Shown here one piece after another: positions 3,390 through 63,894 of a stretch of DNA of 64,000 bases. Source of the stretch: Cyanidioschyzon merolae (taxonomy: Eukaryota). Each line of letters begins with the position of its first letter. The first letter of the stretch is position 1. The notes under the pieces were generated by a model. The model was given only the letters and a program-made list of their open reading frames with translations, was not told the origin of the DNA and did no database searches. The position numbers and the translations under genes are program-made. Where the stretch lies: NCBI GenBank assembly GCA_000091205.1, contig AP006499.2; one strand, given 5' to 3'.

Positions 3390-3516
3390 AGCGTTCTGTG
3401 AAACTGGACAAGAAGACAGCGTGCAGGACGAGAGCTGTGTTCGCAGCACTGGAACGCAGCGGCACACCACGCACCGGGTGCAGGCGTGCCTCGGCAATAG
3501 AGGACTTTTCAGGTCT
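3390..3516. promoter_or_regulatory. Short (about 127 bp) divergent intergenic region between the HDAC (-) and VPS36 (+) genes; a putative bidirectional promoter.
   Basis: Head-to-head arrangement of two confidently called genes. No motif evidence. Confidence 0.35.
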
Positions 3517-4974
3517 ATGGCGGTTCCCGCCAGTTCTGAGGCCTTGCAGTGCTTTGACTTGACAACTTCCGGTTTGCCAGTGTTGTGGGGTTCAGAGAAA
3601 CTTCAGGTCGTTGCGGAGAGAGTAACCGTCGACCTGAGTTCGACTGCAAGTGCGAGCGACTCTCGTCTAGAGGGCACCACCGTGTACGTCACTTCGCAGC
3701 GACTGCTCTTGAAACCGCAGCATCAACAGCAGCTATTTGGTACGGATCTCTCAGATGTAACCTTCATAAAAGCAAGCAAGTCGGGTAGTTTTCTGCTCTG
3801 TGGAGCCTGTGGGAGAACGAGTTCCGCGCTTGTTCGGGTTGGAAAGGGAACACTGCTACGCTTTCACTGGGCAGCAGACCCCAGCAGCGTGGCGAGCTTT
3901 CTCAACAACCTGCGTAGCGCTGTCGAGCTGCATAAGAACGCGAAACTTAGACAACAAGGCACTTTGCGTTGCAAAGATATTGCTGGAAATGACTTCGAAG
4001 CTCGCCCTGCAGGTGTAGCCGGCGTTCGGGCAGCGGAACAGCGCCTAAGAGACGAGCGTAAGCAGCTTCTCAACAGGGCGTTTACCGATATGAACCACCT
4101 TAGTGTCGATGCCGAGAACTTGCGCGCGATGAGTGAGGCGCTGGTTCGCGAAAGCCAGAGAATGAGACACGAAGCATTGAGTCAGGACCCGGAAGCGCTG
4201 CTCTCCGTGATGCTCCGTGACATGATGCGTTTCGCCGAGGATCGTGTTCGTATTGCTGCTGAACCGTCGGAACGCTCGAAGAGTTCAGAGTATTGTTCAC
4301 ACCTGGCGAGGGATCTTTACGATTTTTTGGAGCCGATTGTTGCGAAGAACGGTGGGCTTCTGCATATTTTCGACGCATATGTTCTTTACAACAGCACCCG
4401 ACCAGTCACAGATATTGTTCCAGCGGATGATCTATGCGATGCCTGTGCACAGTGGCCCATTCTTGGTCTCCGCCTTCGACTTGAAATGATGGAATCTCAG
4501 CTCGTCATCCGTACGACAGAAACGGTACCTGTTTCACAAAGATTACTCGAACGAATCAAGGAAGTTGGGTTTATGACCTCACTGCAGGTTGCAGATCAGT
4601 TCCATATACCTGTGCAAGTGGCAGCGTGGCAATTAGAGTCCGCAGAACGCGAAGGTTTTCTCTGTCGTGATGAAGAGGAAACCGGCTGCGTGCGGTATTT
4701 CCTGAATGAATTCGATGCAATCTATGCCGCGGAAATTGGTCGCGAGACGCCAGCAACCGGTACGGCTGGTAACGAATTGTTGCCTACGCCTCAGACAAGC
4801 GCAAATGAGCACATTCTAGAAACCGCTCGTGCTTTTACGCCACCTATTTTTCCAAATACAGCAAACATCAAATCAGATGCCATGAGTGTTGAGACGCTTC
4901 GTCGGAGACGAAGCGCTCAACCGGACCAAGACACCCCAAAGAGTCTTTCTGAGTGGGACGCGACTCCCCAATAG
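3517..4974 (+). CDS. VPS36: ESCRT-II subunit Vps36 (EAP45). It has an N-terminal GLUE domain and a C-terminal winged-helix region.
   Basis: N-terminus reads SGLPVLWGSEKLQ...TTVYVTSQRLLL (GLUE). The C-terminal region MTSLQVADQFHIPVQVAAWQLESAEREGFLCRDEEETGCVRYFLNEF is characteristic of Vps36. ATG at 3517; the track starts at GTG 3421. Confidence 0.75.
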   Translation: MAVPASSEALQCFDLTTSGLPVLWGSEKLQVVAERVTVDLSSTASASDSRLEGTTVYVTSQRLLLKPQHQQQLFGTDLSDVTFIKASKSGSFLLCGACGRTSSALVRVGKGTLLRFHWAADPSSVASFLNNLRSAVELHKNAKLRQQGTLRCKDIAGNDFEARPAGVAGVRAAEQRLRDERKQLLNRAFTDMNHLSVDAENLRAMSEALVRESQRMRHEALSQDPEALLSVMLRDMMRFAEDRVRIAAEPSERSKSSEYCSHLARDLYDFLEPIVAKNGGLLHIFDAYVLYNSTRPVTDIVPADDLCDACAQWPILGLRLRLEMMESQLVIRTTETVPVSQRLLERIKEVGFMTSLQVADQFHIPVQVAAWQLESAEREGFLCRDEEETGCVRYFLNEFDAIYAAEIGRETPATGTAGNELLPTPQTSANEHILETARAFTPPIFPNTANIKSDAMSVETLRRRRSAQPDQDTPKSLSEWDATPQ

Positions 4975-5419: not shown

Positions 5420-6060
5420 GGATGCGCGATGTGCCCTGGCGGCCGCACGCGCTGCGCATTGTCCGTTTCTTTCTCGATGATAAAATTCGGTTGACCATGG
5501 ATCCCAGATTGCGGGACATATAATGATGATTGAAAACGCGTCCATCTTGATGCATCTTTCTTCGAGTTCCATTGCTTTCACTTTCTTTCGAATATACTGG
5601 TCGTTTTTTACTTTCTATCATGTACCGAGTGCCTGACTGCGCCCACAGTAGCGCTTATACCGGTGGAGCTGATGCAGCACGGATACAGAACAGCTGTGTC
5701 GTACCACTGAGGGTTTCGGATCGAGGAACGATTCACCTGATACGGAATCAGTGCGGACAATCATTCTGGGAGCCTGAAAAGTGGGCAGAGAAACCTGGTG
5801 CCTGCAGCAGCGCGGACCGATATGCTAGGAGATAATTGCAATATTGGCGACGCCCAGACGCAGTATCCTAGTACTTGTCTAAGAATAAAGAGTGTTGCCG
5901 ACAAGCTGTGCAGGTCTCGCCACAGCACCTGCCACTCGAGGGAGTATGAAGCACTAGCCCGGCAGACCCGTCCGGTTCGCGGGACCTTCCACACAGAAGG
6001 TAAAGTTTCGAAGATACGGAAACCTTTCCCCCTTCAACGCTTTCCATGAAGGTCGAAAGA
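5420..6060 (+). repeat. Dispersed repeat family A, copy a (at least 640 bp). It is homologous to 19290..19935 (approximate bounds).
   Basis: Similarity to the 19.3-19.9 kb copy is visible by eye over the whole length. For example, gtaccgagtgcctg...ccactgagggtttcggatcgaggaacg...cattctgggagcctg...caggtctcgccacagc... appears in both. Confidence 0.7.
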
Positions 6061-6099
6061 ACCTGTTATTGAGTTGCTATTTAGTGGTTAGTTTCTGTT

Positions 6100-6290
6100 C
6101 TTTCGACAGTGGATCGGGATTCGCTTTCATTCTGGGAGCCTGCAGACTGCGCAGACAGACCTACTGCCTGCGACAGCACGGAGCGATACGCAAGGAATCC
6201 ACTGCGACCCAGACGACGCTTAGACGCAGCATATCAGCTCCTAGTCCCAGAATAAACTGCGTTCCAGACAAGCTGCTCAGGCCGCACTAA
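6100..6290 (+). repeat. Partial tandem re-duplication of an internal segment of repeat A. It corresponds to about 5755..5940 of copy a.
   Basis: cattctgggagcctgcagactg...tagtcccagaataaactgcgttccagacaagctgctcagg resembles copy a at 5755..5940 and copy c at 19645..19800. Confidence 0.6.
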
Positions 6291-13700: not shown

Positions 13701-14449
13701 GTCATCACAGAGAACCGTTTCTATCCAAGGTACACCTCGGCTTTGCACGAAGAAGCTTAGGCTAATTAAAAAGTTCCCGGCACGGTCTCCAGTCTTTGTT
13801 TTCATTCTGATACCATTTTTAGGGAGAACAAGATCGAATTCCACGAATCCTTAATGGAAAAGAAGAGCGAGCGCTTCCACGTGCAACGGACATAGTCCTC
13901 CCCGAGCCAATCGCCCAGAAGAAATCAGGAATCTTAGAGTACGGTGCTGGACGCGAGAGCGGAGGAAACATCCAATGAAGCTTTCTGTGCCTATCAAGCG
14001 AACGCACCAACTGATGAAGAAAGCATTCACGTGCCGCAGCGCTGCGCTTCGATGAAGAGAAGGTGCGGTGGACGCATGGGAAACCGCACCCCAGCCCAGC
14101 GTGACCGGTGCGAAGGACACACCGAAGATGTACACAAAGCAGATGAAAATAACCAGAGGATCCCAGCTGGCAACGATCGTATATTTATGAAACGGACCGC
14201 CAACACCGGGACGCAGTGAATTCCGGATTTTGAGGCTGCCATCAATGTATCTCGACTGCTAAAATCGTAGCTGGAGGCACAGCAGAAACCAGCGCATTAG
14301 AAACTGAAGATAACAGAGTCGAAAAGGAAGCAGTGGTAGAAAGGATGCACAAATGCTAATGCTGATGGCAGTGGGAAAAGAATCAGAGTTTCAGACGAAC
14401 GCTAGACTTCGACAAGGCGATGCATTTCATTCGATCCAAACAGTTCAGT

Positions 14450-14900
14450 ACAAAATATCAGTGAAATAGAAAATGTCCCGCGACCATGCAGGATCAATGA
14501 GCACCCACGGATAGATGCCTCCCAGGCTTTTTTGACCCGCTGTCTGCTATCGGTTTCAGCTTCTCACTGTACGCTTCGAGCGTGAGGGGATGTCCAACAA
14601 AATTTGGACCCCCAGCTCCTCGGGTCCCGTCTCCAGCACCGCATATCGTCTGATACTGATGGCGGCGTTGAAGTCTCGGTTCATAAACTCCATACGTTTT
14701 GATGCCTCTAGTTGATCTTATCAATGTGCGTATTCCCCGAGCTCGCGCTTTCAGTACCATTTGCTGCTCTGCCAACTCTCCGTGCGTGTCCAATGCCGAA
14801 GCGCTCCGTTGGCTTCTCTCCGTTACGGCCTTCTGAAGCGTACATTCCTGCTCTTTCCATAAGTTTGAACATGAACGCACTTCCTGACGCCTTTAGATGA
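14450..14900 (-). pseudogene. Degraded 3' fragment of the TnpB/Fanzor-like element (copy 4). It retains the RuvC-III motif, is frameshifted, and carries the conserved 3' tail.
   Basis: The minus-strand translation contains RMEFMNRDFNAAISIRRYAVLE. The upstream KARARGIRTLIRSTRGIKTYG aligns to ERRAKVRGLLALVSTTSDGKKRMEF in copy 1. The conserved tail ggaggcatctatccgtgggtgc lies at about 14501..14522 (reverse complement). Confidence 0.6.
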
Positions 14901-15177
14901 TTACTTCCCCGGAGAGAGACGGACTTGCTGAGGGACTATGACATGTATTCCCCGTGTGTCACCGTGTGCTGAACGCATTAGCGATTCGCCCAATGGAGCG
15001 ATCACTGCGTACCAAGATAGAAAATACTCATAGGATGGGGTTGAACCACGGAGCTAACGGAGCAATGGAAAGCAACTGTATCCCTATAGAATTCGCAAAA
15101 GCTCGGGCGCAAGGGGAACGATGAAATGCAACGTTGTCCGATAGAATAGCGTCTCCAGACCTGCAGAGCAAAAGTCT

Positions 15178-15448
15178 TCAATTATTCCACAATGTGGAAT
15201 GGTGTTTTCTGAGCCTTCTATTCGAGTTCGATCGTACATTTAACAGGTTAACTGCTCTGCAAATACCCGGATAAGTTGTGACGGTTTCGTCCGAAGGACG
15301 TCTCATCGACCGAAAACATAAATGGACGTCCCTGTGTTTCATACCGATCGTAATGTTCCAGGAACGCTGTCGTTGCGATTGGAAGGAAGATGCCATTGCT
15401 TGAACGATGACTCTTTTTGAGATTGTATCCCAGTGTTTTCAGGATCAT
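15178..15448 (-). pseudogene. Possible remnant of a DDE transposase (Tc1/IS630-like LKxLGYxxKK...FxDEtsF segment).
   Basis: ORF MILKTLGYNLKKSHRSS...RPFMFSVDETSFGRN resembles the region around the first catalytic D of DDE_3 transposases. It is short and interrupted. Confidence 0.25.
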
Positions 15449-16432
15449 AGGCGCGACTTGGTGAGAAACAGAGACGCCTGTGGCGGCTATTATCGTCGCT
15501 GTTGCTTTCCGAAAATGGTGATCAACGGATCGTTTTCTAAGATCGACTGCAAGCGACCTCTATGAATATCGATCTCTGGCACGGAGTGCATCTACATTTT
15601 TCTTATAGTTTTCGCCAACCATCTGAGTACGTCGGTATGACTGTCCTAAACGAGGAATGCAGTCCTCCTTGGACTGTTCAGAAATGAATGTAAATGCTAC
15701 ATGCAAATCATCTACGATCTACACTATGCATTGCATTGCGATTTCGATCTCCTAGACATCGCAGCGGAAGTGAAACAGAATTTAGTACAAAGACTACAAG
15801 AACGGAAACCTCGGGCCTCTTTGATGGTAGCGTTCACGCATCCGATAGATGCCAATATGACACATCTGGTGAAAAAGCAGCTAAACATTCGCGTCGATTC
15901 GTTTTCTGGGTCTGTTCAGGGCATGGTGCTGGCATGTGCGTGCTGGCACTCACCAGCACTCACTGAACGTTGCTTTGCAGTCGCGAAATGCGAAAGCATC
16001 CCGCTCCAACGCGAGTTCGCGGTGATGAACTTGTCTTCAGCATCGCTTCCAAAGTCCGAATGCGACCAGCAAATGCCTCTTCATGGGAAGCTTGCGGCAA
16101 ATACCATCTCAGTTTGACATGGATGAATTCGTGCTCGACATTTCACGAGTGCAGCGCAAGAGGTCAATTCACTGTCCGCTTACACCTGTGCATGCGACGG
16201 CAACATAGAAACCGGAAACGAGTATTCTGCATTCACAGGAAATACCCTGCAGCATAGGCATCTGGATCCCATCCAATCGTTCAGAGCGCTTTTCCGCACG
16301 GCGCTGCTGAGGGCGCACTGATCCGTAAAACGCTTGGGATGTTTCGGTAGACATCTCGCTGCCTTTCGAGTCGAGCTTGTTGCGAGAGGAAAACCCAGCA
16401 GCCGGGGGACGTTCACGAGTTGCGTTTTTGCC

Positions 16433-18398: not shown

Positions 18399-19289
18399 TA
18401 TCCAGCGTTATACACAACAATGAAACTGCGAGTTGCAATCAAGTAAGAACGCAAACGTTCATGCAACACGAACGGAAAAATCGTTTCGTGATCATCGACG
18501 ATGGGCGGCAGCGTGCTCGCGATGCAGGGCTTCGAAGGATCGCGGCGTTCGGTGCAGCGGAATCGGGATGCCAGAGACGCCAGCACACTTAACCTTTCTG
18601 TGCCTGTGCTGGAAAAAAAGAACGCAGCTATCTCTTTGAGAGACATCAACATCTGGGAATCACTGTGGTAAATGAAGGCCAGCCACTTACTTTGAGTGTA
18701 GTGCTAGCAACTGATGGTCCCGTAACTGAGCTCCAGCACTCACCAGTTGTCAGCGAACTCATACTCTACCCCCTAGGTGGAAGGTCCAGCGAACCAGATG
18801 CGCACACGGGACCAGTGTTACGCGTACCTAATCACTGGTGGGTGCCAAGCACAGACCCGAGTCGCCAACCGACGGCAACGCTTTCCATGTACGATCACGC
18901 AGGAGAGAGGCGGCTCCCAGGATTCATCGTAACAGCCAAGTTTCTCCAATGTGTTGTGAAGCGAAAGCAAGTTTTGCATCCGCAGGCTGTCCGAGCACAA
19001 ACTGACAACGAGACCCAGTTCTACGTCAGGTGAAGCATGCCTCGAGCAGACGCCGTCTGCGGTACGGCAACGCCGTTCTGTTTCTGTGCTACGACAGCAC
19101 CGGCGCTACAAGCGCTATTGAGGCGGATGTTCACGGGCAGGCACTCGGCGCCCGATAGCACGTCTGAAACACCATTACATCCGAGAAGAAGTATGGGTTA
19201 TGAAACTTGGACGTAAGGCGTGGAATGACGAAAGTTCCACCGCGCGCAGGCATCAAGCGCACAGAGTCGCGGCACGCTCGCCTGTGTGA

Positions 19290-19935
19290 GAAGTTTTCAC
19301 ATGGAACAAAATCCGCTGCATTTGCTGTTGCCGCTGATTTTTCTCCAATGACAAAACGTTTACATTGTACTTGGATTCCAGATAGCGAGATGGATGGGTA
19401 TAGCTGATCGAAAAAGTGTCCATCATGATGCACTCTACCTCCATGCTCCGTTCCTTATACTTCCTTTCGGATGTACAGATCGTTTTGTGCGTTCTGTAGT
19501 GCGACCGAGTGCCTGCTTTGGGCACCCGCCTTAGCGCCTATACCACTGGGACGGATGCATCATGGAGATAGAACAGCGTTGCCATACCACTGAGGGCGAC
19601 GGATCGAGGAACGCTTTACCTGATACAGCGTTGGAGTCCAGAATAATTCTGGGAGCCTGTAGGCTAAACAGACAGAACTTTTGGCTGCGAAAGCACGAAC
19701 CGATATACTAGGAGTCTACTGCGATCTGGGCGACGACCAAACACAGCATCCCGCATCTAGTCCCAGAATGAACCGCGTTGCGGACGAGCTGCTCAGGTCT
19801 CGCCACAGCGCCCGCTACTGGGGGGAGCACGAAGCACGAGTCCGGGAGACTCGTCCGGCTCGCGGGACTTTTCGCCTAGAGGGAGGATTCTTCAGAATAT
19901 GGAAACCTTTTCCGCCTTTTCAAAGTTTATCGTAG
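19290..19935 (+). repeat. Dispersed repeat family A, copy c. It lies about 400 bp upstream of the start of TnpB/Fanzor-like element copy 1.
   Basis: Homologous along its whole length to 5420..6060. Minus-strand small ORFs in both copies are also related (MEVECIMMDTFSI vs MELEERCIKMDAFSI). Confidence 0.7.
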
Positions 19936-20318
19936 AAGGGGAAAGAAATTGCCGTATCGTTGCTCGCTAGTCGTGAGTCTCTTTTCTTTGTTCAACATAG
20001 CGCAGTCGATTTGCGCACCAGGGAGATCTGTCAGTTTCGAGTCACGACGCGTATGCTGCCGTTGAAGGGAAACGCGATCCTGATCAATAGCGTGCTGCTC
20101 TAATGTGCAAGTTGTACTTGCGTTAAAGACGTGGCAAAGTACAGTTCTTCAGTTCATTTGTGTTTCAAACCTCAAACAAGTGTATTCAACTGTTTTTTCG
20201 CAGTATATAACTGAAGCGTTCAAAGTCCGTTACAAAAAATAAAGAAGGAAAGTCATGGAAAACCAAGTCGACGATCCTGGAGGCCCAGTGTGGCTGGCCG
20301 CCAGAAAAAAAACAAAAA

Positions 20319-21776
20319 AATAGTGCCGAGTCCAGAAGAAAGCGAAGTGAAAAAGAAGCATTAGGGGAGGCTCTACGTCGAAGGCAGCAAGAAAGACGTC
20401 TGTACAACGAGATGGCGGTGAAAGCCTGTCTTCGTAAACATACCAAGGATCCGTACAAGGAAAAGTTGCGAGGCGCTATCAGAAACCGTGTCGAGTTCTA
20501 ATCCATGAGTATTATAAAGGCGTCATCAGTACGAATGCATTTGGTGTCGGAGATGTACGGAGACGTGACGCACATGGAAACAGTCGAGGTTCCGGATGCG
20601 TTTTCCGACAAGACTTCTATTCGTCACCTGATGCTTGGTACAGGGGAATCGTCGACGAAAAAAGAGCTAGTCCATGCCTTCCACGAAAACTTTGCAGATT
20701 TCCGCTTCGAGGGTACTCGATACAAGGGTGACGGAAGTATTTACACATACGGGGCGATGAAGTACATCACGAACCTGAGGAACCATTTGACTATGAACCC
20801 GGAGCGTTTCATGATACGCACCGTCTTTGCGCTGTACCCGGGACTGTCTCGCAAAGGAGTATGGGCGATTATCAATGGGATCACGAACGATCGCAAGCAT
20901 GAAGATGACAAGGAGGCGGATCTCGCGACGAAGAAAGTGCAGGATAACGACTCTGTCGTTCACGCGGACCCTGGGAATACGAATATCATAACCATCGCAG
21001 CACCCAAGCGTGGGGAAGATGGTACTGACGGTACCTTGCGTCAGAAAGATATGTGTCTTTTGAGGTTCTCGAGAGCAAGATACTATCGAGAATCCGTTAT
21101 AATGAATGCGAGAAAGAAAATCGACACATGGAATGCAGGAATGAAGGATCACCTGGAAGCTTTGAGGGAGGTGACGAGCCACGGGGCGGACTTTACAGCT
21201 TCTCGGAAATTCATGGAAGTTCGTGTTGCTCATTGGGATGCGCTGTAGAAAGAATATACAAAGCCCCGGCGGGCTCGTTTGCGTATGAATTTGTATTGTG
21301 GGAGGCAGCGTGCATTCGCAATCTTTTTCAATGAGTTGCGTGCCCTGAAGGAGGACGAGCGTCAAAGTCTCGTAGTAGCATACGGAGCAGGGCGCTGGAA
21401 GACCCAAAAAGGATGTACACCAGCTCCAACGACAAGAACGTACAAGGAGTGCGCACGGCGTTTTGTTACGGTGCCTGGAGATGAGTTCCGAACATCGTAT
21501 GTGCATCATGAACTGTGATGTACGCTTCAGAGAGTGGAGATGGAAAAGTGCCAGAGGAGCCCTGAGGATATAAAAAAGTACGGAGCGCTGACAGATGAGC
21601 AAATGGAAAGGAGGGCGAAAGTTCGAGGATTGCTTGCATTAGTAAGTACAACCAGTGATGGCAAGAAACGTATGGAATTCGTGAATCGTGACTTTAATGC
21701 CGCCGTCAATATAAGGAGATATGCGGTGCTGGAGAATAGACCTCCAAAGAAGACACAACAGGACTTAATTGGATAA
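20319..21776 (+). pseudogene. TnpB/Fanzor-like RNA-guided-nuclease homolog ORF of copy 1, interrupted by three nonsense codons. Read-through or a recently inactivated gene are both possible.
   Basis: See the element entry. At the TGA position, copy 3 has GGG and copy 4 has GAA, so the ancestral codon was probably GGA (Gly). Confidence 0.6.
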
Positions 21777-21905
21777 TCACTCAAGGTGGAATTATATGAG
21801 ACAATATTGGAAGCGGTAGTAGGTGGCCGGTCCAAAAAACTAAGAGGCGTCTGCACGTCAGCTGAAGATGTCTAGTCTAGGGCGGGTCACTCGCCGCTAT
21901 TGTAC
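20319..21905 (+). mobile_element. Near-full-length TnpB/Fanzor-like element (copy 1). A single reading frame of about 485 codons carries RuvC-I-like and RuvC-III motifs and is broken only by three in-frame stops. It is followed by a conserved non-coding 3' tail of about 130 bp.
   Basis: RuvC-I-like motif SVVHADPGNTNIITIAAPKRGEDGT (Asp codon at 20967..20969). RuvC-III motif KKRMEFVNRDFNAAVNIRRYAVL (Asp at 21690..21692). All segments 20319..20498, 20502..21245, 21249..21515 and 21519..21776 are in frame 0. In-frame stops: TAA 20499, TAG 21246, TGA 21516. Confidence 0.65.
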
Positions 21906-22389
21906 ACGGCCGCTGGTGGCAACGTTTTTCGTTTGAAAGGCGTTTGCTGTCTGTCGATCGAAGCCACCATAGGCTCACACCTAACTAGAAGCCCCGGTTT
22001 GAAACTGCATAGGCAGCGTATAGAGATCCAAATCGTCGACAAGCCACTTCTTCTCAATGCTCGCGAGCGAGCAGTTGCAAGTATTTGGAGGACACACTCG
22101 CTCGAACTAACGCACCTGTCACTGCGAGCGGTTCCACATCATGGTTGTTGTAGCGCACTTACTCTACGTGACGGTTTCCGTGCACGCAACTTTAGACGAG
22201 ATTCTTAGCGGTTGGGGTCGGAACTTAAAATGCGTCCTAGATCGGAGGCGCCCTGGCCTCGCAGGGCCTAGAGACACCCGGCCTCGACCAAGGTCAGGCG
22301 GGCACGTTCTTGACGCATTATTCGCACGCAAGCTTCCTTTTCCACCCAAGGACTCGTTTGATGGGTGGTGCACGGCGCCACTTCAGACG

Positions 22390-34084: not shown

Positions 34085-35269
34085 GTTTGGAGTACGAACC
34101 CGTCGTTGCTGGCCACTGATGCAGCCGATGAGCGCAAGTCGCCGAGACTATCCACGGTGTCCAGTAATGTGCGTGTTTATACATTTTTTTCTTGATCGCC
34201 TTTCGAGGCAGCGCATACGACGCGCTCGCCCCGTTCATGCCAGCGGTGACGCACGCTACGCTGGAAGCGATCGCTGCGATGACTACATTCCAAGTCCGAG
34301 ACCCTTTTCCACGCATACCGAAGAGACAGTAAACTTTAGCAGCGTATTGTGTGAGATGTGTCATGCAGCTGCCGAATGCCATTCCGTGAATGGCCTCAAA
34401 TGGCGGAGGATTTGTTATTCGAACGGAATCGATTGTTTCACGCGAGATGTTCGGTGAGCTTTCAGCACGGTTTTTGTGGATCGAGTTGCGAACGGCCGTT
34501 GCCAAGTATTATCGTCCGTGAATCCAGCGCAATGAATCGCTTCGTCAAAGCGTTGATTGAACCTGAAAGACCGAAACCCTGCAAGAATACCGTGTACGCA
34601 TATACTATAAATAGCGATAGAGGAAGAACGGAGGCTCGTACGTATGCATCAGATAAAGGTATCCGTTAGTTTACAAAAACCTATTTGATTGCGCCGCAGA
34701 TCTGCTTTACTCCGGTGATGGCACGAGTGCCAGCGGCGAACTGGTCAAAGCAGTTGCCCCGAACAGGCGGCCGAGAACTCTCCAACTGCGTATGAATCGA
34801 CAAGTCCCTAATGCTCCATTTCAGAACCTCGAGGCTGTATGCCTGGGAAACCTTCGAAAGAATCTCAGAGCTGGAACAGATGGCAACGTTTCTTGTTTAA
34901 TTGTTATCGGACACGACAAAGGCGGTCACCAGAAGCGTACAACTCGGAGTTGGTTCATCCCCGGTGCAGTGTATAGCAGGAGATCGACATCACGATGCAA
35001 CGCTTTGTATAGATCGTGGATGAATTACGTGCTGGACATTAATTCCTTACTGAACATTGTAAGAGAGACCGCATTCCTCCCTCAGGTCAGTCATACAACA
35101 GTGCTCAGATGGTTGCGGAATAACGGAATAAACATGTATGTGCAGTCCACGCAAAGAACTGATGTTCCTTAAGTGTGCTTGCAGTCAATGGTAGAAAACG
35201 ACCAATAGATCACGCTCTAAAAAGCAAAAGTGACGCTGATAGCCGCCGCGGGCGTCTCTGCTTCTCAAT

Positions 35270-36400
35270 AGCTTGAGCGTGTTGACCAAAAAACATGGGG
35301 ATGCAGTCGCCAAGGAGAGTGCTAGTTCATGCACTGCCGTCTTGTACCGAAATAGCAACGACAGAGTTCCTAGAACGTCGGGATCCGTACGAAGCACTGG
35401 AACCTCGAGTTGCTTTTTTAAGGTGATAAGACTTCCTCTTGACGAAACGGTCAGAGCGTGTACGGGTATTCGCGGAGCAGGGAGCACGATGTATGCACTA
35501 CCGAACTTTAAGAGAACGAGGACACTATCTGTTCTAGCTGGAGTGGATTCTTTTCGCGGCCTCAGTTCCGCTAGTAGACAAGGTTCATACAATAGCTCCA
35601 AACACTGTATCGAATCATTGAAGACTTTACCCTGACGTCTGGCGACGTCCGCCCATTGGACAAAGTGGCATTTTCCAATTTCCCTAGCGGTCGGGCTTTC
35701 GCCGATTTTATCGGGGCAGAGCTGATTTTCATTCCTACGTGCATTCCGTGGTTCAGCCACATCGAAGGAGTGTTTTTACCCTGAAACGTCATGATAGTTT
35801 CAAGTGCGAATCCCTGAAGCGTTCAGCACATGGTGACACACCGGGTACATTTTATCTGTCTTGCGCAAATCCTTCTCCCTCTGAGAAAGTCCTCACCAAG
35901 GGGCATCAAGAATTGCGTTCATCTAAAGAAATAAACCATCCAACGGATGAGCTGAAGTGTGCACTTCAGAAGGTCGAGATGCAACGAAGGCAGCGGAGCG
36001 CTCCGGCGATCGAAAAGCACAGAGCGCCGCTAGAGCGCTAAATGCCACAGAGGGCGCGATTTCAAGGACTTCTGCTACTGATGCGTTCCATCGTCGTCAA
36101 TAAACGCGTGGAGTTCGTGAACCGAGACTCCAACGCTGCCATCCATATCAGAAGATATGCAGTGCTGAGGACGAGACCCAAGGAACTGACGAGAGCCAAC
36201 TTTATGGGGCAACCTCTCAGTGTCAAAGTGTACAAGGGCAAGCTGAACCCCCACAGCAGGGGGCCGGTCAAAAACGCCTGGGAAGCGTCTGCACGTGGGT
36301 ATTCATTTACTCTGTATGGCCGCGAAACGTTTCCGCTTCCTTGACTGTGGAAGCGAAATCCGTGGTGACTTTCACAGCATTTTGGCGCGCTTTCGAGCAG
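35270..36400 (+). pseudogene. Diverged, truncated copy (copy 2) of the TnpB/Fanzor-like element. It has the RuvC-III motif and the conserved tail fragment, and ends about 130 bp upstream of the TLK gene.
   Basis: KRVEFVNRDSNAAIHIRRYAVLRTRPKELTRANFMGQPL (36042..36344) resembles the C-termini of copies 1 and 3. The upstream ...FFKVIRLPLDETVRACTGIRGAGST resembles ...FFNELRALKEDERQSLVVAYGAGRW of copy 1. The tail ggaagcgtctgcacgtggg resembles ggaggcgtctgcacgtcag. Confidence 0.55.
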
Positions 36401-40379: not shown

Positions 40380-40620
40380 CGGCGGCATTTTGACACGATA
40401 TGCCTGTGATACCTCTGATGCTACTGCCTCTGATGCTATTGCTGATGCTGGTGCCTCTGATACCTCTGATGCTGGTGCCTCTGGTGCATCTGGCGCTGAT
40501 GCCTCTGATGCTGGTGCCTCTGATGCCTCTGACGCTGCTGCCTCTGATCCTAGTGCTGATACTAGTGCTGATGCTGCGTTTCTCTGGGTGCTGCAGACAC
40601 ACGCGGTGTCGAGAAATCGA
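40380..40620. repeat. Cryptic low-complexity tandem repeat, approximately (GATGCTGGTGCCTCT)n. It translates to D/A/S/G-rich repeats on one strand and L/M/P-rich on the other.
   Basis: Visible 15-18 nt periodicity. Both strands remain open, which is an artefact of the repeat. Confidence 0.7.
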
Positions 40621-41189: not shown

Positions 41190-41888
41190 ATGCTCCGCCC
41201 GCACATCATAAGGTATCTGTGCTGTGGAGCCGCCAGCACCCCGATGCTGGGGCAGCAGCGCGAACTCGCGGCTTTTGTGGAGTCCGCGCACCCCGAAACA
41301 CGCCTGCAGGGCCATGGGCACGGCAAAAGCAGCCACCGTGTCTGGCAGAAAGCCACAGCACCACTTTCATGGCTTGTCGTGGAGAATTTCGTTTCCGGTT
41401 TACAGCAACTCGGAATGAGCGTACAAGGCGTGTGCACCTCGTTTCGCTACGATACTTATAGATGAGTTCCGAACATCGTATACACACCACGAACTGGGGT
41501 GTACACTTCAGAAGGTCGAGCTAGGAAAGTGCCAGCGGAGCCCTGAGGATATAAAAAGCACGGACCGCTGACAGAAGCGCAACTGGAAAGGAGAGCGAAA
41601 GTTCGTGGACTACTTGCATTAGTGAGTACAACCAGTGACGGCAAGAAACGTATGGAGTTTGTGAATCGTGACTTTAACGCCGCTATCAATATCAGGAGGT
41701 GTGCGGTGCTGGAGACGAGACCTCCAGAGTTGACACGAGAGAACTTTATTGGACAACCTCTCAAGTCGAATTATATGAGACAAGATTGGAAGAAGTAGTA
41801 GGTGGCCAGTCGAGAAAAACTGGGAGGCGTCTGCACGTCAGTGGGAGACGTTTCGTATAGGGCGCTGGTCGCCACTACTGCACACGCC
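41190..41888 (+). pseudogene. 3'-truncated, frameshifted copy (copy 3) of the TnpB/Fanzor-like element. It retains the RuvC-III region and the full conserved 3' tail, and ends about 17 bp before the uS9 start codon.
   Basis: Nucleotide identity to copy 1 is visible from about 41400 to about 41888 (DEFRTSYTHHELGCTLQKVE...KKRMEFVNRDFNAAINIRRCAVLETRPPELTRENFIGQPL). There is a frameshift near 41465. The tail runs ...ggaggcgtctgcacgtcag...ctactgcacacgcccg. Confidence 0.65.
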
Positions 41889-41904
41889 CGTAGTCTTTCT
41901 CACA

Positions 41905-42795
41905 ATGCTACGGTGGTGGTGGTGGTGCAGAAGATTCAAAGCAAACTTGCCAGTTTCTACGCTGCGTGGTGAGCAGCTTTTCGGCTCCGCGCAGCACCGA
42001 AACCTAACCCAGTCGAGTTATGTCGGCGAGAGCGTCTACTTGTGGCAGAACAAGGCTCGCGTTCACGGGCTTGTGTCGCCACGCGAAATAGCTTGCAGTC
42101 CGCGCTTGAGAAGCATATTAAGCGGGGCACTGAGCCGACGTGGTTACTCGACTCCTGCTTCGGAGAGTGTCGACGTTCAGCGGCGTCTAGATGAGCAGCT
42201 CCGCGCCAAGGCTGCTATTGCGCTGGACCCGCAGGGCCTTGCGACAGTTTTGGCCGACTCGACCCGAATCGAAGAAGCTAACGCCACAGTGCAGCCCGAT
42301 TCTACCGCGAACGAAACGCAGGCACAGCAGCGACGACGTCGACGACGTCTGTATCCCGACGGTTCCGTGAACGCTACTGGACGACGGAAGACTGCCGTTG
42401 CAGTCGCGCGTCTCTTCCCGATAGAGTCGCCCGGAGGTCCGCAGTCGACCGCAGTCGATCATGAGACGCTCGTGGAACCCCGCTTTCGCGTCAATCGTCA
42501 GGATATCGCCGATTACTTCCTTCGTGTTGATCATCGTTTGGAGATCATGCGCCCGCTGATGCTCACCGGTATGGAGAACCGTTTCCATGTTCATGCGTTT
42601 GCACGCGGCGGGGGCATCACCGGCCAAGCCGAGGCTCTTCGACTTGCCATTGCGCGAGCTTTGGAGGATTACGACCCTGAGCTACGGCGTATACTCAAGC
42701 CGGCAGGTCTTCTCACGCGAGACCCTCGCATGGTTGAGCGGAAAAAGTACGGTAGGCACAAGGCCAGAAGAGCCTTTCAATGGGTCAAACGATAA
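41905..42795 (+). CDS. RPS9: Organellar-type ribosomal protein uS9 (RPS9) with a long N-terminal presequence/extension.
   Basis: C-terminal ...GTGRRKTAVAVARLFP...HVHAFARGGGITGQAEALRLAIARAL...DPRMVERKKYGRHKARRAFQWVKR is the uS9 signature and ends in the typical RR..Q.SKR-like tail. ATG at 41905. Confidence 0.85.
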   Translation: MLRWWWWCRRFKANLPVSTLRGEQLFGSAQHRNLTQSSYVGESVYLWQNKARVHGLVSPREIACSPRLRSILSGALSRRGYSTPASESVDVQRRLDEQLRAKAAIALDPQGLATVLADSTRIEEANATVQPDSTANETQAQQRRRRRRLYPDGSVNATGRRKTAVAVARLFPIESPGGPQSTAVDHETLVEPRFRVNRQDIADYFLRVDHRLEIMRPLMLTGMENRFHVHAFARGGGITGQAEALRLAIARALEDYDPELRRILKPAGLLTRDPRMVERKKYGRHKARRAFQWVKR

Positions 42796-48582: not shown

Positions 48583-48822
48583 ACGGAACAACGTGCTCGA
48601 CCCGCACTGTTTCTAACCTGCCGTGTGTGCAGATGATGCGCTTCCGGGGACACAGCAAACGTCGAAGAACACGATCCGCACTGTTTCTAACCTGCCGTGT
48701 GTGCAGATGATGCGCTTCCGGGGACACAGCAAACGTCGAAGAACACGATCCACACTGTTTCTAACCTGCCGTGTGTGCAGATGATGCGCTTCCGGGGACA
48801 CAGCAAACGTCGAAGAACGTGT
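48583..48822. repeat. Minisatellite: three contiguous 74-bp units plus a partial leading unit. Unit: cgcactgtttctaacctgccgtgtgtgcagatgatgcgcttccggggacacagcaaacgtcgaagaacacgatc.
   Basis: Units begin at about 48603, 48677 and 48751 and are near-identical. It lies about 230 bp downstream of the Brix gene. Confidence 0.85.
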
Positions 48823-58859: not shown

Positions 58860-59879
58860 TTGAGCAGAATCAAAACTCCGAGGTATCGTCGCATTTGTCT
58901 ATTTACCATCAACACAGCCAGTTTCGGTGTGCGCGACAATGGTTTCGCCTCCGCGTTGACGGCTGCTAGCTCTGGCGTAGTGAGTGTGTCTTTTTGGTCT
59001 AGATGTTGCCAGGGTACAGGCAGTGAACACTCCACAGGACAGCGTCAGACAGGTTCCCTTTTGCATCTGCGGTACTCAATACGACATGGGACCAATGGGT
59101 ACCAATGGGTACCAATACGGAGGCGATATACAGCCCAGAGGGCACGGTCAAGTCAAACCGATCGGTCGCGTACGATGATATCAAGCATACTCGGTGAATG
59201 GGTACCAATATGGAGGCGAGATACAGCCCAGAGGGCACGGTCAAGTCAAACCGATCGGTCGCGTACGATGATATCAAGCATACTCGGTGAATGGGTACCA
59301 ATATGGAGGCGAGATACAGCCCAGAGGGCACGGTCAAGTCAAACCGATCGGTTGCGTGCGATGATATCAAGCATACTCGGTGAATGGGTACCAATATGGA
59401 GGCGAGATACAGCCCAGAGGGCACGGTCAAGTCAAACCGATCGGTCGCGTACGATGCTATCAAGCATACTGCCTGGCCAGCTCACGCTGTCGCTCTATGA
59501 CGCGTCGCCACCAGCGCATTTCTGCCGCGGCACTCTTGCAAGGCGGAAAGACGCGAAGCTCATCAACGATGCAAATACAGTTACCCTCATGCCAGTTCAC
59601 CCGACCAGAGCAATACAGTACGACTCCAGTTTGCAGAGCACTCCGAGTCCCTTGCTTCCAGTCACCCGCGCCTTGGAGCATACCTTCGGGAGAGTTCCAG
59701 CACTGAGCCTTCGCGACTCCCGTTCCGTCGTCGATAGCGAGACGTATACAGGCACGCGAAAACTTTATTTCCCTAACGATTCCGAGCAGACACACACGCG
59801 TGATATGCAGAAGCGTCAGCGTGAGTTTCCAGGCTGGTACCCACTCATCGGTGCCGTCGTCGCTGGCTTCCGGTGTTAG
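58860..59879 (+). CDS. Hypothetical ORF spanning the 93-bp minisatellite. It encodes 31-aa tandem repeats (GEWVPIWRRDTAQRARSSQTDRSRTMISSIL, four copies). Its coding status is uncertain.
   Basis: The repeat unit is a multiple of 3 and keeps several frames open on both strands, so the long ORF may be an artefact of the repeat. Confidence 0.25.
   Translation: MSRIKTPRYRRICLFTINTASFGVRDNGFASALTAASSGVVSVSFWSRCCQGTGSEHSTGQRQTGSLLHLRYSIRHGTNGYQWVPIRRRYTAQRARSSQTDRSRTMISSILGEWVPIWRRDTAQRARSSQTDRSRTMISSILGEWVPIWRRDTAQRARSSQTDRLRAMISSILGEWVPIWRRDTAQRARSSQTDRSRTMLSSILPGQLTLSLYDASPPAHFCRGTLARRKDAKLINDANTVTLMPVHPTRAIQYDSSLQSTPSPLLPVTRALEHTFGRVPALSLRDSRSVVDSETYTGTRKLYFPNDSEQTHTRDMQKRQREFPGWYPLIGAVVAGFRC
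59087..59472. repeat. Minisatellite: four 93-bp units preceded by three 10-bp gggtaccaat repeats.
   Basis: Units start at about 59107, 59200, 59293 and 59386. The unit ends ...gtcgcgtacgatgatatcaagcatactcggtgaat. Confidence 0.85.
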
Positions 59880-61103: not shown

Positions 61104-61488
61104 CAGAGCCGCCACAACCTCCCGATTCTTTCTCTTCGATAGAAAGGTCATTCAGACCAGGAATCAGTAACGATGCGATGGATATCGCATATGCGTGATC
61201 AGAGCCGCCACAACCTCCCGATTCTTTCTCTTCGATAGAAAGGTCATTCAGACCAGGAATCAGTAACGATGCGATGGATATCGCATATGCGTGATCAGAG
61301 CCGCCACAACCTCCCGATTCTTTCTCTTCGATAGAAAGGTCATTCAGACCAGGAATCAGTAACGATGCGATGGATATCGCATATGCGTGATCAGAGCCGC
61401 CACAACCTCCCGATTCTTTCTCTTCGATAGAAAGGTCATTCAGACCAGGAATCAGTAACGATGCGATGGATATCGCATATGCGTGATC
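61104..61488. repeat. Minisatellite: four 96-bp units. Unit: gagccgccacaacctcccgattctttctcttcgatagaaaggtcattcagaccaggaatcagtaacgatgcgatggatatcgcatatgcgtgatca.
   Basis: Units start at about 61106, 61202, 61298 and 61394 and are near-identical. It lies immediately upstream of, and overlaps, the 5' end of the 803-aa ORF. Confidence 0.85.
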
Positions 61489-63894
61489 CGCGTTGCAATA
61501 CGTATGCGAGCGGCAGCTCCCGAGGCAGTGCGCTGCGAATCGCAAGCCGCGCGCTGCCCTGCAGCGATGCGCGCGAAAAATCGCCTCCAGGAACGGCGCG
61601 CGCCGCGGCGTCGATCGCGCATCGCATTGGGTGCTGCTTGCGGCACGAGACGGTGCTTTCGGCTGCTGCAAGTGTCGTACGTACCTCATATGGATGTGAG
61701 CGGGAACGGGTTATTGATGCCTCGTAACCTGCAAGTTCGTCGTAGCGACGGTAGGGTGTTGTCTGTACGTATCCGCGAGGCATCATTGGGTGAAGAAGCG
61801 AACCTGCACTTCGGTAAGCTAGAGGCTGCAGTCGCTTGCCCGGTGGCAGGTGTTCATGAGGCGTCCAGCTGGACACGTGAGCCAGTATGCAGAACAAATC
61901 GGCAGTCGAGCAACAATGTCGACCACGAGGTGTCACAATCTGGGCTGAGCCTGGCTGATAAAGCTGCTACAGTCAACGGGATGCTCTGGTCAGACGCGCA
62001 TGCTCCCAAAGCGTATACCGAGTTGCTCGGCGATGATCGAATGCACCGGGAGTTGTTGCGCTGGCTGGTCAGCTGGTCGCAGTATCGGGACGTACGCAGC
62101 ACCTCGGGAGCATCCTTTCGGAACGGGACCGGTGCTTGTCGTCGGTTCACCGCGCCGTTGACACCCTTAGCGGTGTTGGCCGGTCCGCCCGCATCCTGCA
62201 AAACGGCGTGTGTGCGTGTTCTCGCTGAGCGGGCTGGTCTGGAAATGTGGGAGCCCCATATGCTGTTTAGAGACGGGTTGAACTGTGCAGAAAATCGATT
62301 TGCAGAGGTACTCGGGAGTGCTTCGCTACGAACAGGGCGACCAAGGCTGGTAGTTGTCGACGAGGGCGTTTTACCCGCAGAAGCCTTTGCCTCTCTGAAA
62401 CGAAGCGCCGGGAACGCTTCCGCCAACACCATCCACTGGTCGGATGTTCTTGTTCGCGTAGCGCTCACGTTGAAAAGCGTACCTGTTCTCTTCGTTCTCG
62501 ACGATGCTCACTGCCGTGAGGCCCGCATCCTCCGTGCGCAGGGAGCTGTCATTTTCACTTGCAGCCGCCCCGGTTTGCAGCCGCTCAAGAGACGTCTAGA
62601 GCAGGTTACGCGTCACTGTGGCTTGAAATTCGCCGAATCCGCCTTTCTTGAGCATCTTGCACTGGCACTTAACTGCGATATTCGAGCATGCCTGAACCAA
62701 CTCCAGCTTATTGGTGCCTGTCAATGGTCTGATGGCCTGTGGTCCACCATTGGCCTGCGTGATGCACCGGGGCCTCTGCGAGAGCAATGCTCGCAAATAT
62801 TCCGGGTGAGCGCGCGTCCAGCGTCCTATATGGTTCAGACGGGAGCCGGTGGCGTTCGTAACCGAGCGACCGGAACTGCGTCCGACGATTCTGAACGGGA
62901 TATTCCGCACCGACCAGCGTTCGGGGCATCTCAGAGCCCAGATCTCTGGAAACGACAGCATTTTCTCAGCGGTGAAATTCGCGATTATCTCGACATGTGT
63001 TTCGAGAACTATCTGGCGGTGGTGCCCTTCGATCCGCTGATGCGTCGCTGCAGCGCTGCAGTCGACTGGCACAGTTGTATCGATTCGATGATCCACAACG
63101 AGCTGGTGGACTCGATGGTGCTGGAAACGCTCGGCCTTGCTGCCCTGCAATCGTACCGTTACCATTGCGGGCGATCGACTGCACCCGTACCACACTCGCT
63201 CAAACTGGCCCGTTTCGGGTGCCTCGACGCCAACTCCCCGATGCATACGCGAAACCGCGACATCATAGAGCGATATCGACAGGCGCTTATCGAAGATTCA
63301 AGCAACGCTTCTGTACGGCAAGCATATGCGCTATCTCTGCGGCGCGAGGGCGTTCTCGTTTTCATACCGTTGCTTGTTGTCACGATGCAAGCGATCGTGG
63401 AAGCGACAGTCGCGGAAAAAGGCGCACGGCGCGCGGAGCTGCTCCGGCACCTAGGAAAGCAACTGTCGAGCTACGCGCTACGTTGGGCGGCGGATGACGA
63501 TTCGCAGGCCAACATTGCACCAGAAGCGCCATCAGGTGCTCGCCGGTGGAATGCTCTTCCGCTTGAACCAGCGATCGCTGACCTATGCATCATGCAAAGC
63601 GCTTCGTATCCGGAATGCAAACGGGAAGGCGTGCGAGCGCTTCAACGACAGTTCGGCGTGCTACTCAGGAACTGCGCTGGGCAACGGGTGCGGTCCGCTC
63701 GGAACGTCGCACTGCGCGGAAACGCACTCCACCACCACGCTGCGCATCCTCTGAGTTTACCGGTGAAACGCGACGCTAGGATATCGGAGCTTCGATCGCA
63801 TTCAGATGGCATCCAGTGCATCGTCCGTTACCAGTATCGCGAAGGGCACACGAACGCGGTCTTGCGTCCGTGTCTGATCGAGGATTTGCTATAA
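61483..63894 (+). CDS. RFC-like clamp-loader family protein (Rad17/Rad24-, Ctf18- or Elg1-like) with a degenerate Walker A motif. The true start is probably downstream of 61483.
   Basis: NGMLWSDAHAPKAYTELLGDDRMHRELLRWLVSW...LAVLAGPPASCKTACVRVLAERAGLEMWEP follows the Rad17/RFC large-subunit pattern (LW.eKy.P....EL......v..WL...lLL.GPpGcGKT). The listed ORF start lies inside the minisatellite. Confidence 0.5.
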   Translation: MIRVAIRMRAAAPEAVRCESQAARCPAAMRAKNRLQERRAPRRRSRIALGAACGTRRCFRLLQVSYVPHMDVSGNGLLMPRNLQVRRSDGRVLSVRIREASLGEEANLHFGKLEAAVACPVAGVHEASSWTREPVCRTNRQSSNNVDHEVSQSGLSLADKAATVNGMLWSDAHAPKAYTELLGDDRMHRELLRWLVSWSQYRDVRSTSGASFRNGTGACRRFTAPLTPLAVLAGPPASCKTACVRVLAERAGLEMWEPHMLFRDGLNCAENRFAEVLGSASLRTGRPRLVVVDEGVLPAEAFASLKRSAGNASANTIHWSDVLVRVALTLKSVPVLFVLDDAHCREARILRAQGAVIFTCSRPGLQPLKRRLEQVTRHCGLKFAESAFLEHLALALNCDIRACLNQLQLIGACQWSDGLWSTIGLRDAPGPLREQCSQIFRVSARPASYMVQTGAGGVRNRATGTASDDSERDIPHRPAFGASQSPDLWKRQHFLSGEIRDYLDMCFENYLAVVPFDPLMRRCSAAVDWHSCIDSMIHNELVDSMVLETLGLAALQSYRYHCGRSTAPVPHSLKLARFGCLDANSPMHTRNRDIIERYRQALIEDSSNASVRQAYALSLRREGVLVFIPLLVVTMQAIVEATVAEKGARRAELLRHLGKQLSSYALRWAADDDSQANIAPEAPSGARRWNALPLEPAIADLCIMQSASYPECKREGVRALQRQFGVLLRNCAGQRVRSARNVALRGNALHHHAAHPLSLPVKRDARISELRSHSDGIQCIVRYQYREGHTNAVLRPCLIEDLL

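Follow-up and report, generated by a model that had tools for sequence, protein, structure and literature searches.

A conserved two-stem-loop module at the 3' terminus of CMe-1A, a Fanzor1 element of Cyanidioschyzon merolae, as a plausible ωRNA scaffold

Does the conserved sequence behind a broken Fanzor gene in the alga Cyanidioschyzon merolae hold the scaffold of a guide RNA (omega RNA, ωRNA)? The sequence lies at positions 21777-21905 of a 64,000-nucleotide stretch of C. merolae 10D chromosome 17 (contig AP006499.2), which we call the window, and an initial annotation had proposed this interval as a candidate scaffold. We found that the interval consists largely of former coding sequence and that the noncoding 3' end of the element is a module of ~72 nucleotides (nt), which runs from the stop codon of the family at 21878 to the end of alignability at ~21947-21951 and reaches ~45 bases past the interval. 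The module consists of a first stem-loop (SL1), a CUGUA linker, and a terminal hairpin (SL2). The gene, copy 1, and a second copy in the window, copy 3, are dead copies of the C. merolae Fanzor1 element, family CMe-1A. By analogy with characterized Fanzor1 systems, we put the probability that SL1-CUGUA-SL2 is the ωRNA scaffold of live copies at roughly 0.6.

In copy 1, SL1 lies at 21878-21899 on the plus strand (UAGGGCGGG-UCA-CUCGCC(G)CUA), as defined by pairing, folding, and positions 1-25 of model R1; the TAG that ends the family ORF (21878-21880) lies inside it. The linker (21900-21904, +) reads UUGUA in copy 1 and CUGUA in the family consensus and is part of a motif, GCC-YY-ACUGUA. The SL2 region (21905-21951, +) was delimited by folding and family-wide covariation, and homology ends there. 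Copy 1 retains SL1 and the core of a "type B" SL2 hairpin at 21919-21947 (GGCAACGUUUUUC GUUU GAAAGGCGUUUGC), the outer CAC..GUG closure of which has decayed. The corresponding module of copy 3 (41858-41918, +) folds and matches model R1 with 41.5 bits (E = 4.5e-8). It retains SL1 (41858-41877, with TAG at 41858-41860), the linker (41878-41882), and an SL2 hairpin closed by CAC..GUG (41883-41918; CAC..CCGUAG..CUACGG..GUG). A (GTG)n run follows this terminal hairpin at 41919-41927.

We compared these ends with 80 related loci (L numbers below) taken from metagenomes, apparently from Cyanidioschyzon populations, which gave 79 distinct 3' tails; family copies are ~75 to 85% identical. We found that nucleotide diversity climbs to the random level (0.67 to 0.69) only at 21660+285 in copy 1 coordinates and that the flanks of different copies are unrelated immediately beyond SL2. 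Thus, the last base of SL2 is the boundary of the element, and well-preserved copies run from CAC to the closing GUG. The interior of SL2 varies among subfamilies, and in L010 the hairpin reaches 19 bp (CACCGUUGGCGUCGUUCG-ACU-UUCGAACGGCGUUGAUGGUG). We found no pairs of young copies at different loci from which boundaries could be read to the base; near-identical pairs share flanks and represent one locus in different samples. A solo 3' fragment (L047:920-1032) consists of the last ~45 nt of the open reading frame (ORF) followed by SL1 and SL2; Fanzor sequence is absent upstream of it, and it is comparable to the ORF-less "ghost" loci of SpuFz1, the Fanzor1 of Spizellomyces punctatus.

Three further observations concern this region of the family. 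L047:4400-4580 and L048:4400-4575 are 99% identical through the ORF tail and have different SL1 loops and SL2 variants from the stop codon on; this points to recombination or gene conversion whose breakpoint lay where the ORF meets the module. The SL1-SL2 region is tandemly duplicated in L073:685-800. L052, L011, and L072 have TCCAGGGGT in common directly after the element end despite different sequence downstream.

The module has a defined position and boundary, is conserved, covaries, and is biased to one strand. We built a covariance model from five seeds of equal length, chosen as the 3' arms differ in length, and obtained 82 matches and 59 distinct copies. In the alignment of these 59 copies, which was fitted to the model structure, 87% of cells were paired, versus 28 to 59% when the partners were slid. 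Double changes occurred in 23 of the 27 pairs, versus 11.7 ± 1.9 in shuffles, and 0 of 500 shuffles reached 23; these shuffle statistics are inflated by relatedness, as all of the sequences are copies of one repeat family. SL1 was predicted in every folded copy, with 88% of cells paired and with one pair that switches between CG (31 copies) and GC (26 copies). The closing pairs of SL2 covary: CAC..GUG becomes UAC..GUA in L039, CGC..GCG in L049, and CUG..CAG in L053. L043, L020, and L044 also have a hairpin at the position of SL2, built there from unrelated sequence. When sequences were folded singly, SL2 windows had a mean z of -2.0 (52% below -2); the value was -0.68 on the reverse complement, and flanks and the majority of coding windows were close to 0. 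In preserved copies the whole module folds into SL1 plus SL2 with z values of -5.3, -4.4, and -3.4, versus -2.0 and -1.6 on the opposite strand. G·U pairs outnumber A·C mismatches in SL2 by 164 to 24 (~7:1), and selection therefore acts on the sense strand. Nucleotide diversity was 0.42 in SL2 and 0.23 in SL1 plus linker, the latter near that of the adjacent coding tail. A search of Rfam 15 gave no match at an E of ≤10 in 21400-22100. Two further matches to the model in the window, at 3513-3591 (+; 16.4 bits, E = 0.037, inside ORF 3421..4974) and 62594-62622 (E = 1.5), were treated as chance.

Known Fanzor1 ωRNAs have a scaffold of ~75 nt that extends from the stop codon to the right end of the element and forms SL1 and SL2 (PMC10432273, PMC11423790), and Fanzor RNAs have been found abutting the right end (Jiang et al., PMC10530073). 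In SpuFz1, the 14 to 15 nt past the right end are the guide (Saito et al. 2023, PMC10432273). Cryo-electron microscopy of three Fz1 complexes showed a conserved SL1 of 7 bp, as well as a single SL2 before the guide in SpuFz1 and in PpFz1 of Parasitella parasitica (Xu et al. 2024, PMC11423790). The C. merolae module resembles the SpuFz1 and PpFz1 ωRNAs in position, in length, in the order of SL1 and then a single SL2, and in the variable flank directly after it, and the associated protein is a Fanzor1 by profile and fold. We consider an ωRNA scaffold the best reading because this layout matches the known one. There are differences: the C. merolae SL1, which by its layout may correspond to the SL1 of Xu et al., has 8 to 9 bp with bulges and overlaps the stop codon; SL2 is long (up to 19 bp); and the right end is the hairpin itself and not an inverted repeat.

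According to this model, the sense strand of a live copy would be transcribed through SL1 and SL2 into flanking DNA, and the RNA would be trimmed until the scaffold and about 15 to 20 nt of flank remained. With the flank portion as its guide, the Fanzor1 nuclease would then be directed to DNA of matching sequence beside a target-adjacent motif (TAM). In copy 1 the stretch at 21952-21972 (+) would, by analogy with SpuFz1, encode the guide if transcription read through. A similar arrangement is found in the TnpB ωRNAs of IS200/IS605 elements (e.g., ISDra2), in which the guide RNA comes from the 3' end of the nuclease gene or the sequence downstream plus the transposon right end, and a hairpin at that end is used by transposon and guide RNA alike. 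The C. merolae element is like these in having its putative RNA source at and after the 3' end of the nuclease gene together with a right-end hairpin. In contrast, it is eukaryotic, encodes a Fanzor1 protein, has no TnpA, and has a scaffold that barely overlaps the ORF.

The interval of the initial annotation was described as noncoding sequence downstream of a stop codon. We found that this stop, the TAA at 21775-21777 (+), is premature: copy 3 and most relatives have CAA (Gln) there, and a stop at this codon occurs in only 3 independent loci. In most copies the family frame continues for 35 more codons (...NF(I/V)GQPLKVELYEKKLEAVVGGRSKKTGRRLHVSWRRFV*), and the commonest family stop is a TAG at codon 73, which corresponds to 21878-21880 in copy 1. 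Bases 21778-21877 of copy 1 (+) encode the ancestral C terminus (...QPLKVELYEKKLEAVVGGRSKKTGRRLHVSWRRFV*; family consensus PLKVELYEKKLEAVVGGRSKKTGRRLHVSWRRFV), as judged by the common frame and codon periodicity, and a -1 frameshift of copy 1 in an A-run masks this reading. Nucleotide diversity by codon position is 0.188/0.145/0.248 in the tail and 0.138/0.119/0.228 in the upstream ORF, with the same excess at the third position. We found no structure in 21777-21877; control windows were folded as well, and the interval was not more stable than shuffled sequence (z = -0.5). Thus, 21778-21877 is former C-terminal coding sequence that lies outside demonstrable RNA structure, and the argument from conservation of noncoding sequence falls with the premature stop of copy 1 on which it rested.

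Other parts of the initial annotation fared variously. The tail similarity itself is real: copies 1 and 3 align at ~85% identity from 21779 to ~21912 (41759-41892 in copy 3), and it is not due to chance because a similar tail recurs in 79 distinct metagenome copies. The claim of a 110- to 130-bp tail in copies 1, 3, and 4 was borne out by the four-tail alignment for copies 1 and 3 but not for copy 4, which shares with copy 1 only ~47 nt of coding block (21807-21852 in copy 1) and past that block is alignable, for 110 nt, with copy 2. Copy 2 does keep GGAAGCGTCTGCACGTGGG, as had been noted. Copies 2 and 4 retain the block GGCCGGTC.AAAAA..CTGGGAGGCGTCTGCACGT because it encodes a shared peptide motif, GGRSKK.G(R/K)(R/H)L(H/S)V, in the family frame of every copy. 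Of the two blocks described as conserved noncoding sequence, the first therefore encodes peptide (LEAVVGGRSKKTGRRLHVS), and only the second (tagggcgggtcactcgccgctattgtacacgg...) lies within the noncoding module. An end at 21905 cuts off the main hairpin, through which homology continues to ~21947-21951. The central idea, a guide-RNA scaffold at the 3' end beside the element boundary, agrees with a covarying, strand-specific module at that place, which extends past the annotated interval.

The protein had been assigned to the TnpB/Fanzor group, and this was upheld: it is a Fanzor1, by profile and fold. A profile of 110 relatives matched the Protein Data Bank (PDB) chains of the Fanzor1 structures of Parasitella (PpFz1, 9cf0; E = 4.6e-19), Spizellomyces (SpuFz1, 8gkh; E = 9.8e-12), and Guillardia (GtFz1, 9cer; E = 0.011). 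This depth was needed, as PDB sequence searches with a single sequence or with 7 sequences found nothing. An AlphaFold2 model of the intact relative P0067 had a mean confidence (pLDDT) of 91.6, and an earlier structure model from 7 sequences was unusable (pLDDT, 48). In a Foldseek comparison of the P0067 model with the PDB, the top 7 hits were all Fanzor1 proteins (SpuFz1, PpFz1, and GtFz1), with Cas12 families next; SpuFz1 matched with an E of 5e-17 and a TM score of 0.65 to 0.74, and the fold is of the TnpB/Cas12 type (WED-REC-RuvC-TNB). Of the RuvC catalytic residues, D398 and E569 are the same in all 110 relatives, and conservation of D636 is ≥90%; the remnant in copy 1 carries the DPG, DEFRT, and RDFNAA motifs. 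A Pfam scan of the conceptual proteins of the window and of the relatives found no TnpB or Fanzor family; the precomputed label for the protein is DUF8286 only, and PF07282 (TNB) was seen solely in distant relatives.

Intact Fanzor1 relatives were found outside the window (P0008, P0067, and P0078). P0078, P0121, and P0067, which are more distant, sit in Tc1/mariner elements with a DDE_3 gene upstream, terminal inverted repeats (TIRs) of 30 to 32 bp, and a TA flank. In L083 to L088 the full order is TIR, DDE_3 gene, Fanzor1 gene, untranslated region (UTR) of ~185 nt, and TIR. Capture of Fanzor1 by mariner elements has been described previously (Bao & Jurka 2013, PMC3627910). We found that the L083 to L088 elements belong to the same Fanzor1 clade, with 42 to 48% identity to the conceptual protein of copy 1 over the matched 62 to 64%, and that their 3' UTR is conserved and structured up to the right TIR. 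The motif GCC-YY-ACUGUA stands just after an SL1-like hairpin in these mariner-borne relatives from other organisms as well. Because it is common to them and to CMe-1A, the motif is old. In contrast to these elements, with their DDE_3 gene, TIRs, TA flank, and ~185-nt 3' UTR, CMe-1A has no mariner parts and ends in a hairpin.

Several points weigh against an ωRNA scaffold. The four related copies in the window are all pseudogenes, with every ORF broken by stops, frameshifts, or deletions, and nothing in the window is functional now; the modules of copies 1 and 3 are eroded (z of about -1). SL1 alone is thermodynamically ordinary (z = -0.1) and is supported mainly by a single covarying pair. 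For SL2, the pairs were counted in an alignment that had been fitted to the model structure, which favors the structure, and RNAalifold on plain MAFFT alignments gave only 4 pairs or nothing useful for SL2. No candidate TAM or other motif emerged at the left end, where the 5' boundaries vary among the copies compared and no flanking motif is conserved. Finally, the hairpin ends on the very base at which the element ends, and CMe-1A has no TIRs, target site duplications (TSDs), or transposase, so that a mobility signal must exist somewhere.

The last of these points leads to the main alternative, which we consider unlikely: that the terminal hairpin, alone or together with SL1, acts chiefly as a mobility signal in cis, read as single-stranded DNA or as RNA by an enzyme acting in trans, and is not, or not only, a guide scaffold. 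The enzyme could be of the HUH/rolling-circle type, as HUH transposases usually recognize hairpins, or the reverse transcriptase (RT) of resident retroelements that lack long terminal repeats (non-LTR elements), as with the 3' stem-loops of long and short interspersed nuclear elements (LINEs and SINEs); C. merolae has 26 non-LTR elements, 3 of which have an intact RT (PMC1955436). Consistently with such a signal, the 3' end is constant whereas the 5' modules vary, and 5'-truncated copies (copy 3, L047:920-1032, and L036:134-607) keep the 3' end intact. The strand-specific, G·U-rich structure and the (GTG)n run after copy 3 also fit. CMe-1A resembles Helitron/HUH elements and stringent LINEs and SINEs in having a hairpin at the extreme 3' end, no TIRs or TSDs, and variable 5' ends. 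It differs from them in lacking a CTRR-type terminus, Rep/Hel or RT, a poly(A) or regular tail, and an identified partner; no partner enzyme, poly(A), regular 3' repeat, or TSD was seen. Moreover, every characterized Fanzor carrier is a DNA transposon, and among intact relatives the nearest are Tc1/mariner elements. A mobility signal also leaves unexplained SL1 and the ACUGUA motif in TIR-bearing relatives, in which the TIRs already provide such a signal. The right-end hairpin of TnpB elements does both jobs, so that this explanation may be complementary to an ωRNA scaffold.

A plain role in the 3' UTR of the Fanzor mRNA, in 3'-end formation, stability, or localization and with no part in guiding, would account for a module directly after the stop codon on the sense strand and for an RNA-like structure with G·U pairs, and the family is reported to be transcribed (PMC1955436). 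A UTR element, however, need not match the boundary of a mobile element to the nucleotide. The length and two-stem-loop layout fit known Fz1 ωRNA scaffolds (PMC10432273, PMC11423790), and a guide RNA is encoded at the equivalent position in every studied Fanzor or TnpB, so we regard this explanation as improbable. Recent common ancestry of an unselected tail, with hairpins that are inherited palindromes or chance, fits the inflation of shuffle-based statistics within one repeat family and the likeness of SL1-plus-linker diversity (0.23) to that of the coding tail, but it is very improbable given copies only ~80% identical whose SL2 diversity is 0.42 while pairing stays at 87%, changes on both sides in 23 of 27 pairs, hairpins built at the SL2 position from wholly different sequences (L043, L020, and L044), the strong sense-strand bias, and slid controls that preserve relatedness and fall to 28 to 59% paired.

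An ωRNA scaffold in live copies of CMe-1A thus remains our preferred reading. In the window, copy 1 extends from an ATG at 20256 to the element end at ~21951. Its Fanzor1 pseudogene (20256-21880, +) was delimited by its translations, comparison with P0001 and P0008, and the motifs DPGNTN, DEFRTSY, and NRDFNAAVNIRR. It has in-frame stops at 20499-20501, 21247-21249, 21517-21519, and 21775-21777, one frameshift in an N-terminal A-run, and the -1 frameshift near 21833-21839. An acidic tandem repeat (…KHEE.KEA..ATQKVQDND.VV…) lies just upstream of RuvC-I, and its copy number differs among P0001, P0008, and P0009. Near 20935, an internal deletion removed ~330 codons of copy 1 upstream of the last acidic repeat unit, with KVQDND kept. 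Copy 3, a remnant of ~41417-41918, holds by similarity and translation a 5'-truncated, frameshifted Fanzor1 ORF from RuvC-II to the C terminus (41417-41857, +).

Copies 2 and 4 are of another type. In copy 2 (34950-36375, +), alignment and translation show a decayed DDE remnant of the Tc1/mariner type, then a C-terminal piece of Fanzor, and then a different 3' tail of its own that contains the hairpin CGCUUCC..GGAAGCG. Copy 4 (14440-15760, -) is a chimera of the same type and has just the ~47-nt coding block in common with copies 1 and 3. In both, only the C-terminal ~100 codons of Fanzor1 directly follow the DDE remnant, and the tail is unlike that of copies 1 and 3, so by sequence copy 4 groups with copy 2. 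The conceptual translation of copy 4 has a weak DDE_3 match (E = 0.038), below our cutoff. We assigned the DDE remnant of copy 2 because it is homologous to copy 4 and because DDE_3 genes lie upstream in the intact relatives. No TIRs were found around copies 2 and 4, and the TIR sequence of the relatives is absent from the window. The mariner DDE remnant that both retain points to copies 2 and 4 as relics of a mariner-type ancestor.

The 5' side of the family is a patchwork. Fanzor bodies with the same 3' end carry one of two 5' modules, "alpha" or "beta" (>400 nt), or unique sequence; the loci compared were L022, L036, L047, L020, L031, L066, L069, L054, L048, L071, L053, and L040. In copy 1, alpha occupies 19338-19989 (+), and the sequence upstream of ~19338 is unique. 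Homologs of this module are a solo copy at 5527-6103 and modules at many loci. The solo alpha is followed by a partial internal duplication (6127-6281), and an inverted partial copy of ~190 nt lies at 19026-19215. From its description in PMC3627910, alpha is probably TE-N2_CMe. In the alignment of 5' regions, homology among Fanzor bodies with different 5' modules starts at a small hairpin (20000-20016, +; GCGCA GTCGATT TGCGC), which varies with covariation in other copies (GCGCTCA G TGAGCGC and GTGCGC..GCGCAC). We also chained BLAST hits to measure 5' truncation and set this measure aside, as it was confounded by the variable acidic repeat in the ORF.

The identity of the family follows from earlier descriptions. 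Three long ORFs of the window match C. merolae 10D proteins exactly, among them the tousled-like kinase BAM82073 and CYME_CMQ169C. CMe-1A was described as a C. merolae Fanzor1 family of ~150 copies of ~3 kb, ~80% identical to their consensus, without TIRs, for which TSDs could not be determined; its first 635 bp are the separate repeat TE-N2_CMe (Bao & Jurka 2013, PMC3627910). Our copies agree with that published description, which we used in place of the Repbase consensus, in host, size (the reference family copy has 3338 bp), divergence, Fanzor1 ORF, absence of TIRs, and a shared 5' region of ~635 bp, the 5' ~650 bp of our element being found also as a separate repeat. A 3.2-kb interspersed element that is transcribed and present in 253 copies makes up ~5% of the C. 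merolae genome (Nozaki et al. 2007, PMC1955436), and given the shared host, the ~3- to 3.3-kb size, and ~80% identity, it is probably the same family. These papers describe the element and its ORF but not the 3' structure, the exact 3' boundary, or an ωRNA, and we found no description of the CMe-1A 3' end, its boundary, or a guide RNA in the literature searched. The element and the protein family were therefore already known; the 3' module is newly defined and, by analogy, of a plausible Fanzor1 ωRNA kind. Separately from the Fanzor copies, the window holds tandem arrays at 61104-61583 (96 nt, four units), 59104-59563 (93 nt, four units), and 48598-48819 (74 nt, three units), and a short-period GCTGATGCC-like array lies at 40398-40564, just 5' of copy 3.

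The module raises the question of how a Fanzor element that has neither TIRs nor a transposase multiplies and acquires patchwork 5' ends. One doubtful proposal is that CMe-1A, a Fanzor1 element, has shed the mariner transposase and TIRs that its relatives have, and that the guide-RNA hairpin module became its sole cis-acting end. It would then have spread either through a resident non-LTR RT copying an RNA intermediate or through breaks that Fanzor and ωRNA induce and that are repaired by copying which starts at the 3' end. If this is true, either route explains the constant hairpin 3' end, the patchwork of 5' modules, and the 5'-truncated copies.

The defined 72-nt SL1-CUGUA-SL2 module provides a concrete ωRNA model for the largest repeat family of C. 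merolae, which occupies ~5% of a very small genome. C. merolae, whose habitat has been described as 45°C and pH 1.5 (PMC1955436), is a genetically tractable thermo-acidophilic alga and hence a suitable organism for such work. Together, the module and its Fanzor1 protein offer a compact candidate nuclease/scaffold pair.

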